The notes under the pieces: model-generated
What the model saw: the letters and a program-made list of their open reading frames with translations, nothing else
What the model was told of the DNA's origin: nothing
The model's database searches: none
Shown here: piece after piece, positions 14,484-18,688 of the stretch
Layout of the letters: each line of letters opens with the position of its first letter
How positions within the stretch are numbered: position 1 is the stretch's first letter
Translations under genes and position numbers: made by a program
Source: Atractiella rhizophila
Lineage: Eukaryota
NCBI GenBank assembly: GCA_021432655.1
Contig: MU271385.1
Location: 49,665-69,664, forward strand
Direction of reading: 5' to 3'
Length of the DNA: 20,000 nucleotides

Positions 14484-16052
14484 TCACTCGTCCGCAGGTC
14501 CGTACTTATCCTTCCAAATCCAACTATTCCCGACGATAGGCGTGCCCCCACTCTTCTCCGCCTTCCTATACCACGTCGCCGCCTTAAACTTATCCCTCTT
14601 CCCCCCTGGACCCCTACCGGCCAAATAAGCGTCTGCGAGACCGTTCATGGCGTCGGGGTCACCGAGGACGGCTGCCATCTCGAGGTACTCGAGACCCTTC
14701 CGCTCGTTCTTTTCGACGCCGAGACCAAAGAGGAAGGAGTTGGCGACTTCGTAGATTGCGAAGCGGAGGTAGGCTCGTTCTTCGTCGTTGCTGTTGTTGT
14801 TGCTACTACTGTTGGGGTTGGTGCTGGTGCTGTGGAGGGATTGTTGAAGGTCAACGATGGCTTCGGAAGCGGCGGAGCGAAGGTAGTGGAGTCCTTGGGC
14901 CTCGTTGGGTTGAATTCCCCATCCATGCCTGTGAGGAGATGGGGAGAACATCATCAACCTGGACCTCTTGCAGGATGATAGTAGAGGATAGGTAAGACGG
15001 AGGTACGAACCTAAGTGCCAAACCAGCCAAAATCTCGCCTCCCTTAGATCCCCTCTCCGCTAATTGAATAAACATCTTAGTGCTGAGTATCAACCTCGGA
15101 TCGTCCTCTACTGTTCCCAACTCGTCTCTCCTAATATGATGTTTCTTCTTTACGACAGTGCTCGCCTTCGACAGTGTATGAAGTTGGACTGCAAGGTGTA
15201 GAACGTCCTGGAGAGGGAGCGAGGCCAGTTTCTCATTCGTTATTGGTCCTCCATCCTTTTCCGCCCTGTCGGGGAAGAGCGCCAACTCGAGAGCGCTCAA
15301 CTGGATCGGAACGTGCGGATCGACTCTAGAAGAGCTCCTCGAGCGGGTGACGTTGAGCGGAGGTGGAGGGCTACTGAAGTCCGCGGCAGAAGAGGACGAG
15401 TCGGACTTTGCGTGTCCCCTACTGAAGAAGGCTGATAAGCGGCTCTTCCTCTTGGAGCTGACCGATGTAGGACTGCCAAGGTCCGAGGTAGGAGAGAGTG
15501 TGTCGTGGTCAACGGGTTGGAGGATGGTGTCGGCGGTGAGGATGGCCAGCGTGCGACTCTCTGGCGTGGAGCGGTCGGCGTCAAGGTCTTCTGGACGGAG
15601 GTTTGGAGGGACGAGGGAGACGCGAGAGGCGGAGCGCGAGCGGTTCTTTTCCGGTGTGCCGTTCGAGTTGGGTAGATATTCTGTAACACCATCACTCAAT
15701 CTATACTTAGCAAAAGAAAGAAGAACGTGCCAGAAGAATGCAATCCGCCGTCAATGACGCTGATGAGCGACTCGTCCTCCTTCTCACGATGAAAAGGGTT
15801 GAAGCTCCTCCGCTTCCTCTCCTTCCCTCCATTACCACCGCCTCCACTTGTAATAGAGTGCTGGGAGACGCGGGAGGAGGTTGAGGACACGGACGTGACG
15901 GAGAGATTCCTCGATAGCTGCGATATAGCGTCGTTGTACGCTGGATGGGTATTCTGGTACTGAGATGGATGGGGAAAGTCAAGCGAGTGCGGAGGGGCGA
16001 CAGGAGTCTGTGGTGGGATGATGTTTAGCTCTGGCGCTGGGGGAGACGACAT
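14484..16052 (-). CDS. Sel1-repeat protein, DSF2 / Nif1-like
   Basis: GLALRHGWG, AIYEVANSF.FG.GV, AA.LGDPDA, KFKAA.WYRKAE..G..IVGNSWIWKDKY. Introns 15681-15730 (GC-AG) and 14929-15010. Confidence 0.85.
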
Positions 16053-16314
16053 GCTTGGAGTTACTTGACGGAATATTGTTATCAGTATGTAAACTGTAAA
16101 GTAGTGAGAAGGTAATTGGGAGGTAATAAAGAAAAGGAAAAGGATTGATAAAGAGAACCAGTAAAGCGGCTTGGCAAGTGAAATTACGACAAGGTTCCGA
16201 AACACTGCCTTGTTCACTTCATTTTACATTACAGTAGGTCACATCCTCTTACAGTGTTGCACTCGTAATAACAATGCGATGAAGTCTGTGAAAGCAAATA
16301 AACAGTATTACATA

Positions 16315-16735
16315 TCACTCTTGCAGTAAAATCACATCAACATCATCATGAGCCCCTTGCAACAACATCTGACCCTCAAACGTAACGACTCCCTTCCTCT
16401 TCGCTGCTCGGAGAGTTCCATTGAGCGCCTCGACTGCCATCATAATGTTGTCCAAACAGCGCCGTCGACATTACACGAGCGAATGAGATCAAGCTCAGAT
16501 CAGATGCAGATGACGAATAGAGGGAAGAGGAGACGCACAGATGTTGCTGCATCGATCGTCCTTCACTATCTTCCCAAACTTGACCACTGCGACACCTTTC
16601 CCGTCAGCTGGCTTCTCTCCCAGTCGCTTGATCTCTACCTGTTAGGCCGACCGTCATTTATCGTTTCCCTCTGAAGATAGCTAATAGATATGTGCCCACC
16701 TTCAACAACTCGACTTCTTCGTCAATATTGACCAT
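16315..16735 (-). CDS. ABRACL: Costars family protein (ABRACL/HSPC280 homolog), 84 aa, 3 exons
   Basis: Exons 16735-16700, 16638-16539 and 16433-16315 with GT-AG introns of 61 and 105 nt give MVNIDEEVELLKVEIKRLGEKPADGKGVAVVKFGKIVKDDRCSNIFEALNGTLRAAKRKGVVTFEGQMLLQGAHDDVDVILLQE. This matches the Costars pattern (EI.RLG, VKFG, DD.C.N.FEAL.GTL.AAKR, LLQG.HDDVD..LLQ) end to end. Confidence 0.95.
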
Positions 16736-16916
16736 GATGGTAGATGTCACTTCTTGATGCACCGTCTACAGTGGAGGATAGATACTGTTAATAAAGGTGA
16801 AAGATGTGCAGAGATAGAGTTCAGGAAAGGAAGAGATTAGGTTCAATGCAACCAGGATGACAGAATCCGGCCGCTCTGACACAGTGGCAAATGATAAGAA
16901 CTGATTTGTTGAAAGT

Positions 16917-18688
16917 TCAACTTGACGTCTGCGTCTGCGTTGCAGTAACAGTATTGATCTGGAATGTACCTTCCCAACCACGTCAACAAGGTCTACCACA
17001 TCATGACACGGCTCACATTGAGGAAGAGTGGAAAAGTCTGCGGAAACTGTACAAGCCAGTCCGAGGTTGGTGAGCGCACCACGAATGGCGCCTGTCGGGA
17101 AGGAGAGGAACTAACCACCTCTCGATCAGCCAGGTTCGTCCGGATAAGAGCCATGGAATATGAAACGAAATAAAATGATAAATGAAAATGAATGCAATCG
17201 ATGAGAGTGACTAACCATCCGCGCTCGACGAACCACTTCCTCCTGAGCCGTCTCCAGCTCCCCGTCCTCCCCTTCTTTCCCACCCCATATCCATATCCCA
17301 CCCACCCGCCCTTCCCAGTCCTCCTCCCGCAAACCTGTTGTCCTACACCCACAACAAAATACCGCCAAGCATCAACCACCAAAATTTACAAAGCAAGGGG
17401 GAACAAAAATCGAACCTGTAGTACCCAGACTCCACGATGGTTCGTCCGGAGGTTATCGATCTGTTTCCCGTACAGAGTGATCCATAGATCCTTGCACACG
17501 AACTTGATGATCTCCAGCGGTTCCGGCTTCGGAGGCTCTTTCGACGTCGACGAAGGTCCGTGGGATGAAGACGCGTTGGGCATGTTTGGCGCCGGTTGAG
17601 CTTGGAGCGCAAATGGGGGACGGTCGCGCGTCAACCTTTCCGATCAATCCAAAAAATGTCACCTCCAGGTACACAGGGGAGGGGTTGGAGGAAATAGAAA
17701 CGAACCGCTCGGCCATTGCCCATCCGACTCTGTGTCCAATAGCGTCCAGTCGATGCCTCAACTCCCTCTCCTCCTCCTGTGTTAACACGGCGGCACTGGG
17801 ACGCGCCGAGTCGGTCGATGTTGTGGACGAGGATGGAAGCGGAGGGGGAACGTAGGAGGGATTGAAGAGTTGTAGGTCGTTGTGCACCATCGCTTCGAGA
17901 GCGGCGCGGGTGGAGGAGACGTGTAGGGTGGATTGGAGCAGGATGGAGATCATCTGTGTGTTTTCGCAGAGCGCATTAGTTAGTTGGGTTGGACAAGAGA
18001 CCTTCATTCATAGGGTTGGTGATGACTGTAAGACTTTGTTCCTCCCTTGAATCTGCCACTTTTACACGCGTTACAGCTTCAACCAAAAAGAAACATAGCA
18101 GCAAGTCGCAGAAATAGATTTGTGTCTGGTTCGTGCAGTTCTACACTGCATATCCGGAACTAGTCCTCCCAAGGAAGTTGGTATGAAGCAGGAAAATAGA
18201 TGAAGGACTATGCATACATATTATAAGATCATAGGTGAGTGGGAAAGATAAACTCAGTTAACAGAACAGTCAATCAGAAAGTTACGACGTTTTAACTTCA
18301 TTCGCTAACTTGTTGATATCATCTCAAATGTGCTCGACATCAACATATGCCTAAGATCCATAGTAGTGACACCCTTTCATCGACATCAAGTTGGAAACAA
18401 CATGAAGCAGAGCACTCTCCGTGTGAAAGGGAATGCTTTCGCGAACGAGAGCGCTTTGCAGAACACATATTCACAAGACAACCCATATTTTCTATACCAC
18501 CTTCGTCCAGAAAGTAAGGGACAAACCTCAGATCCGAAATAATCCCACACGAGACGATCTATCATGCCATCCTGTCTTTCCACGAGCCCCGTCACGGCGG
18601 AAGAGACGAGACTGGTTGAGGACCTGTTGCCTGCTCCGCCCGATGCTCCTGAAGCTGAGGGAGGGAAGGAGGGTGTGGAACGCGACAT
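16917..18688 (-). CDS. TRS33: TRAPP complex subunit Trs33/TRAPPC6; apparent +1 frameshift in exon 4 as assembled
   Basis: [10 protein letters not shown]...[50 protein letters not shown] and LPQCTFQI. Introns 17954-18526, 17636-17705, 17343-17415, 17111-17215 and 16970-17016. Confidence 0.88.

Follow-up and report, generated by a model that had tools for sequence, protein, structure and literature searches.

The founding member of the Costars family is Costars of Dictyostelium, described in two papers as a small regulator of actin and cell motility (PMC10527439, PMC7922284). The function of a human family member, ABRACL, is described in PMC7922284: the protein colocalizes with F-actin at the leading edge, its expression leads to higher F/G-actin ratios, and its interaction with cofilin was detected by both proximity ligation and co-immunoprecipitation. 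In vitro, ABRACL dose-dependently blunts the cofilin-stimulated decay of pyrene-F-actin, and on its own it neither promotes polymerization nor inhibits depolymerization (PMC7922284). With respect to the distribution of the family, three papers published in 2021 (PMC7937467), 2023 (PMC10527439), and 2024 (PMC11402703) state, citing Lin et al. 2011, that Costars/ABRACL proteins are absent from fungi, in line with the statement in the initial annotation of this locus that the family had been called so. Here we describe a member of this family encoded in the genome of the fungus Atractiella rhizophila.

The gene lies on the minus strand of the window, by which we mean the whole stretch of 20,000 nucleotides that was analyzed. 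It consists of three exons (16735-16700, 16638-16539, and 16433-16315) that together form a 255-nt coding sequence for a protein of 84 amino acids. When the exons were joined by coordinates, the spliced coding sequence contained no internal stop, whereas the unspliced frame stops after 25 residues. Both introns are of the GT..AG type, and CTAAC, a motif resembling a branch point, lies 7 nt before the 3' end of intron 1. The initial annotation had proposed a three-exon gene of 84 residues, and every coordinate that it gave was correct. Upstream of the ATG, spliced contigs extend to 16794 (run X1), 16803 (X2), and 16818 (X24); this extent of the leader is a lower bound, because assembled contigs cannot give the true 5' end. 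In the order of transcription, the features of the locus are the following:

16917..17110, minus strand: final two exons of the TRAPP-family gene upstream, with a joint that skips 16970-17016 in X23
16736..16818, minus strand: transcribed leader 5' of the Costars ATG, minimum extent from spliced contigs
16700..16735, minus strand: Costars exon 1, 36 nt, ATG and 11 codons (MVNIDEEVELLK); joined to exon 2 in X23, X1, and X2
16735-16733, minus strand: Costars ATG, the start codon and first of the 12 codons of exon 1
16639..16699, minus strand: Costars intron 1, 61 nt, phase 0, GT..AG (GTGGGC...TAACAG); skipped in three of the four runs
16539..16638, minus strand: Costars exon 2, 100 nt, 33 codons and the first base of codon 46
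16434..16538, minus strand: Costars intron 2, 105 nt, phase 1, GT..AG (GTGCGT...TGGCAG); skipped in X1, X2, and X24
16315..16433, minus strand: Costars exon 3, which includes the TGA stop (16317-16315) and matches positions 41-76 of the Pfam Costars profile

Splicing was analyzed with the assembled contigs, not the raw reads, of four public runs (X1, X2, X23, and X24, of which only X1 is recorded as RNA) aligned to positions 15600-18100 of the window. The joint 16433->16539, which skips 105 nt, was present in X1, X2, and X24, in one contig each, with shorter sides of 59, 53, and 37 letters, respectively. The joint 16636->16698 (equivalent to 16638->16700), which skips 61 nt, was present in X23, X1, and X2 with sides of 82, 97, and 98 letters. 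Both joints are exactly those predicted earlier from the letters (16699/16639 and 16538/16434), and each occurs in the contigs of three of the four runs. In X24, only two loose ends of 11 and 15 letters mark intron 1, at 16640 and 16698, and by eye these ends were read as the partner exons. Both joints occur together in a single 254-nt contig of X1, which is composed of 16375-16433, 16539-16636, and 16698-16794 (0, 0, and 1 mismatches, respectively) and is a fully spliced Costars message. In X23, Costars exons 2 and 3 were not linked by any contig, and one contig entered intron 2 by 12 nt. The contigs of these public runs give neither the ends of the Costars transcript nor its level. Among the differences listed in the aligned contigs, 6 of 9 distinct sites in the coding sequence were synonymous and the others were V61I, V28I, and G27S; taken from the listed differences only, with 22 more beyond the list, this share is at most a rough sign of constraint on the coding sequence. 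Relative to the window, X23 carried the I61 codon, two silent changes, and several small indels in the 3'-UTR (16289-16311).

To which family the product belongs was analyzed by profile, by alignment, and by predicted structure. The exons were scanned separately against Pfam-A, in which the Costars family is PF14705 (profile length 76, gathering score 24). Exon 3 alone scored 52.6 bits (E 5.2e-14) over profile positions 41-76, well above the cut-off and in agreement with the family assignment made initially, and exon 2 alone scored 17.9 bits (E 0.0034) over positions 12-39. The exons are thus collinear with the Costars domain. The 90% cluster that contains the protein also carries PF14705 in its precomputed annotation. 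For the structure comparisons we used as query and model protein KAH8913906.1, which differs from the window product by one residue only (V61I). [quoted passage not shown] The AlphaFold2 model of KAH8913906.1, built on a 13-row alignment, had a pLDDT of 86.3 and a pTM of 0.74, with helices predicted at residues 4-18, 33-38, 40-45, and 49-58 and strands at 29-32, 62-64, and 78-81. In a Foldseek search with this model, the sole match with E <= 0.001 was 2L2O (TM 0.87, rmsd 1.8, 83 columns, 61% identity), and the second match was 2KRH (TM 0.66). The predicted structure thus agrees with the atypical winged-helix fold of the family, which is defined by three helices against an antiparallel sheet. 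Across 13 sequences from fungi, a fish, Corallochytrium, and Ostreococcus, 22 columns were invariant, and all of them are present in the window's protein; the V61I site lies outside these columns. In the same alignment, the identity of the fungal protein to chytrid and animal proteins was 62-70%. Because the Pfam profile, the end-to-end alignment with 2L2O, the fold, and the size and conserved residues all agree, we assign the protein to the Costars family: it is a small, stand-alone Costars/ABRACL-family member of 84 amino acids.

A long protein of the ABRA/STARS type, with the domain at its C-terminal end, was ruled out by the position of the ATG at domain residue 1 and of the stop directly after the domain. 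The upstream exons seen in an X23 contig belong to the TRAPP-family frame, which closes at 16917.

We then compared the product with the protein databases. The spliced window product is identical, letter for letter, to GenBank KAH8921457.1, an A. rhizophila entry named 'hypothetical protein'. This means that the public annotation already contains the exact gene model, and the claim that the gene had been hidden does not hold. The related claim that it had been missed by the open reading frame track is right in that no single open reading frame spans the gene, which is nevertheless present in the public annotation. Two A. rhizophila entries make up the 90% cluster: KAH8913906.1, from a contig of 6,381 nt, and KAH8921457.1, from a contig of 76,712 nt. 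Both bear the name 'hypothetical protein', and V61I is the only difference between them. A dikaryon with two alleles or haplotigs could account for this pair, and so could a very recent duplication.

Our protein searches are limited to proteins that have 5-residue words in common with the query. A search with the 51-residue frame containing exon 3 gave 33 candidates, all 33 with E <= 0.001 and with PF14705; the best named match was KAH8913906.1, an 84-residue protein with V61I as its only difference from the three-exon product. With KAH8913906.1 as query, all 79 candidates had E <= 0.001 and PF14705, and 24 of the 79 carried fungal names: Rhizoctonia solani (12), Ceratobasidium (5), Atractiella (1), and six other genera with one match each (Clavulina, Punctularia strigosozonata, Phaffia rhodozyma, Boothiomyces, Terramyces, and Gaertneriomyces). 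Globomyces pollinis-pini was a further fungal match, found with the exon 3 frame and in the profile search. According to NCBI taxonomy, the fungal matches belong to the Atractiellales, Cantharellales, Corticiales, and Cystofilobasidiales in the Basidiomycota, and to the Rhizophydiales and Spizellomycetales in the Chytridiomycota (four genera). Several entries already bear the family name, namely 'Costars family protein' in Ceratobasidium sp. AG-Ba, 'Costars domain-containing protein' in Rhizoctonia solani, and 'costars family protein abracl' in Phaffia rhodozyma. The orders used here for Rhizoctonia, Ceratobasidium, Terramyces, and Globomyces are those to which we take these genera to belong. 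The profile search returned 2514 matches; the best 120 of these were mostly animal, and no additional fungal lineage appeared among them. No Ascomycota or Mucoromycota name occurred among the matches listed, and since the lists are not exhaustive this is not evidence of absence. In a metagenome scan, 80 of the 241 confirmed loci were kept, and no close relative of the window's gene was present among these 80 (best-segment identity at most 76%). The readable contig origins of these 80 loci were marine metagenomes or TARA. Many of the metagenome matches were uninterrupted over residues 1-84, and others started at about residues 22-31; the introns of these loci thus seem to be placed differently from those of the window's gene.

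The presence of named fungal members in the databases shows that the printed statement that the family is absent from fungi is out of date. In full-text literature searches (judged by title and listing), we found no study of a fungal Costars/ABRACL member; the 'costars family gene' of PMC3532157 was set aside because it is a gene of the host plant, not of a fungus. As to the condition set initially, that orthologs widely annotated and characterized would remove the novelty, orthologs are already annotated in several Basidiomycota and chytrids, and none was found that had been characterized. The gene in the window is already known in the databases and ordinary, and neither the gene nor its mechanism is of a new kind. 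Its main value is to correct the repeated statement that all eukaryotes except fungi have the Costars/ABRACL family. Named members come from at least four orders of basidiomycetes and two of chytrids, and the window shows one of these members to be spliced and transcribed.

To analyze the descent of the gene, we built a tree of 34 rows and 85 columns, hand-picked from about 200 proteins: the window product, 13 named basidiomycete proteins, 4 chytrids, 8 animals, Corallochytrium, 3 green algae, and 4 protists. Its resolution was poor, with 5 of the 31 inner branches starred and 14 open. In the free tree, the fungi, the Basidiomycota, and the chytrids each failed to form one group (2 changes each). 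Grouping was then evaluated by approximately unbiased (AU) tests. Holding all fungi together lowered the log-likelihood by 0.08 units (p 0.375), holding the Basidiomycota together gave a value 0.60 units above that of the free tree (p 0.536), and holding the chytrids together gave a p of 0.262. Two further groups, chosen after the tree had been seen, were the Agaricomycotina without Atractiella (cost 16.9 log-likelihood units, p 0.156) and the Cantharellales (cost 10.4 units, p 0.243). None of these five groupings was rejected, so the tests do not establish either vertical descent or transfer within fungi, and with a poorly resolved tree of 85 columns 'vertical' means only 'not rejected'. Judged by these sequences, descent from an opisthokont ancestor is compatible with the data. 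The initial suggestion of a vertically retained and patchily lost gene stands to the extent that vertical descent is not rejected (p 0.375); it is not demonstrated, and the patchiness is judged from lists that are not exhaustive.

The tree also bears on a different reading, in which the Atractiella gene is a subtype shared only with the Ceratobasidiaceae, either through transfer from fungus to fungus or through differential loss of old basidiomycete paralogs. The Atractiellales belong to the Pucciniomycotina and the Ceratobasidiaceae to the Agaricomycotina, which are distant lineages. In the tree, the window product and the A. rhizophila entry grouped with nine Ceratobasidiaceae rows (support 91/94), while Punctularia, Phaffia, and Clavulina, the last a genus of the order to which Ceratobasidium belongs, stood apart with the chytrid Gaertneriomyces (85/85). 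KAH8913906.1 is 82-83% identical to Ceratobasidium, versus 63-67% to Clavulina, Punctularia, and Phaffia. In addition, five columns, corresponding to residues 22, 27, 29, 60, and 67 of KAH8913906.1 and including a loop insertion of 2-3 residues, are exclusive to Atractiella, Ceratobasidium, and Rhizoctonia as compared with the other 10 of 13 rows, and the count of exclusive columns is 0 for all Basidiomycota, for the Cantharellales, and for all fungi. Against this reading, the AU tests do not reject the groupings of the species tree (p 0.156 and 0.243), the groups tested were named after seeing the tree, and only 85 columns were available. The end branches of Clavulina (0.47) and Phaffia (0.34) are long, so that rows with short branches may group by shared slow evolution, and no genome was seen that has both types. 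We therefore consider a subtype of this kind unlikely. The fuller proposal, that there are two basidiomycete Costars subtypes, one of which (with the loop insertion and four exclusive residues) occurs only in Atractiellales and Ceratobasidiaceae and was perhaps moved by fungus-to-fungus transfer, seems to us rather unlikely.

No function is known for the gene in any fungus, and elsewhere the family is tied to cell motility (PMC10527439 and PMC7922284), which would fit a relic that is transcribed but decaying or non-functional in a non-motile fungus. However, the reading frame is undisrupted, none of the 22 family-invariant columns has been lost, six of the nine sites that differ among near relatives (in the differences listed) are synonymous, identity to chytrid and animal proteins reaches 62-70%, and the predicted fold is confident. 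A relic is thus highly improbable.

The Costars gene is part of a compact row of genes on the same strand. The TRAPP-family gene ends 181 nt upstream of the Costars ATG, and the next open reading frame of the minus strand has its ATG at 16052, 262 nt downstream of the Costars stop. The TRAPP-family match is to Pfam TRAPP PF04051 with 23.2 bits, under its cut-off of 27, and the frame closes at 16919-16917 when the X23 joint that skips 16970-17016 is applied. A full exon model of this gene built from the joints was abandoned, as the frames of the first and last exons were inconsistent; what we retain of it is the final pair of exons with the stop. All four runs (X1, X2, X23, and X24) showed a loose end at 17955 on the minus strand with the same continuation, so that an additional 5' exon of the TRAPP-family gene, unaligned within 15600-18100, is probable. 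A further joint of X23, at 18027-18077, skips 49 nt with GT..AG on the plus strand, its shorter side being just 24 letters long. This joint may mark an intron in a plus-strand gene beside the TRAPP-family gene, or may be an artefact. One unbroken X23 contig links Costars exon 1, across the spacer of 181 nt, with the spliced exons of the TRAPP-family gene (16736-17110), and a second one leads from the 5' part of the downstream gene (15731) across the 3' region of Costars as far as 16445. These contigs spanning gene borders may reflect overlapping UTRs or read-through transcripts, and contigs cannot prove a single transcript. Other Pfam matches in the window were pieces of Ribosomal_L27A, PRKCSH, Sel1, COX24_C, and Aa_trans. 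The GC content of the 1-kb bin with the Costars gene was 0.449, and bins of the window ranged from 0.434 to 0.605.

That the gene is foreign, either as contamination of the assembly or through recent transfer from an animal, an amoeba, or a plant, would agree with the long-standing description of the family as absent from fungi and with the 61% identity to the human protein over the structural alignment, but it is hardly credible for a gene with two short GT..AG introns, placed tightly between the TRAPP-family gene (181 nt) and the next same-strand open reading frame (262 nt), continuous in an X23 contig from its exon 1 into the TRAPP-family exons, with a GC content inside the window's range, nearest relatives that are all fungal, fungal monophyly that is not rejected, and two near-identical copies deposited for A. 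rhizophila. Contamination in particular is very unlikely as the source; the initial annotation had argued against it from introns and position, and the introns and the location among intron-bearing genes of a fungal genome bear this argument out.

Altogether, the locus is very probably an ordinary nuclear gene of three exons, transcribed and spliced, that encodes the fungal counterpart of ABRACL/Costars, with a role in cofilin and actin regulation suggested by homology. The identity of 62-70% and the 22 invariant columns make the same cofilin/actin adaptor role the most likely one in a hyphal fungus. By homology, the fungal protein would be a small winged-helix-like adaptor that has no action of its own on actin and would bind cofilin or another actin-binding partner. 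It would then damp the cofilin-driven disassembly of filaments, by which actin would be shifted to the polymerized pool. In a walled, hyphal fungus this role would most plausibly be exerted at actin patches, at cables, or at the growing tip, and not in crawling. The roles proposed in the initial annotation, in hyphal-tip actin, endocytosis, and cofilin regulation, are likewise putative. For the cofilin step specifically, we see about an even chance. The most likely history of the gene itself is vertical descent since the opisthokont ancestor, with retention in chytrids and, in a scattered manner, in Basidiomycota.

That hyphal fungi, which are non-motile, retain a motility-linked regulator under constraint suggests that the family has a core job independent of motility, plausibly the control of cofilin. 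Phaffia is a genetically tractable yeast, and either Phaffia or chytrids could be simple systems in which to find this core job. The value that is left in the locus lies in the corrected distribution of the family and in the functional question in fungi, and the gene itself is solid but ordinary.

Compared with the systems described, the window's protein is closest to other fungal database entries: KAH8921457.1 is identical, and Ceratobasidiaceae proteins are 71-83% identical over the full length, with one from Rhizoctonia at 65%. Human ABRACL (HSPC280/C6orf115, 2L2O) is likewise a stand-alone protein, of about 81-84 residues, with 61% identity and a TM of 0.87 to the fungal model. The order of helices and strands in this model is the same as in the winged-helix-like fold described in PMC10527439. 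In the loop before the first long strand, the fungal protein is 2 residues longer than human 2L2O (GKGVAVVKF versus GK--LSVKF). The host also differs, being a walled fungus that does not crawl. Cofilin binding and an effect on actin have been shown for human ABRACL only (PMC7922284). [quoted passage not shown]
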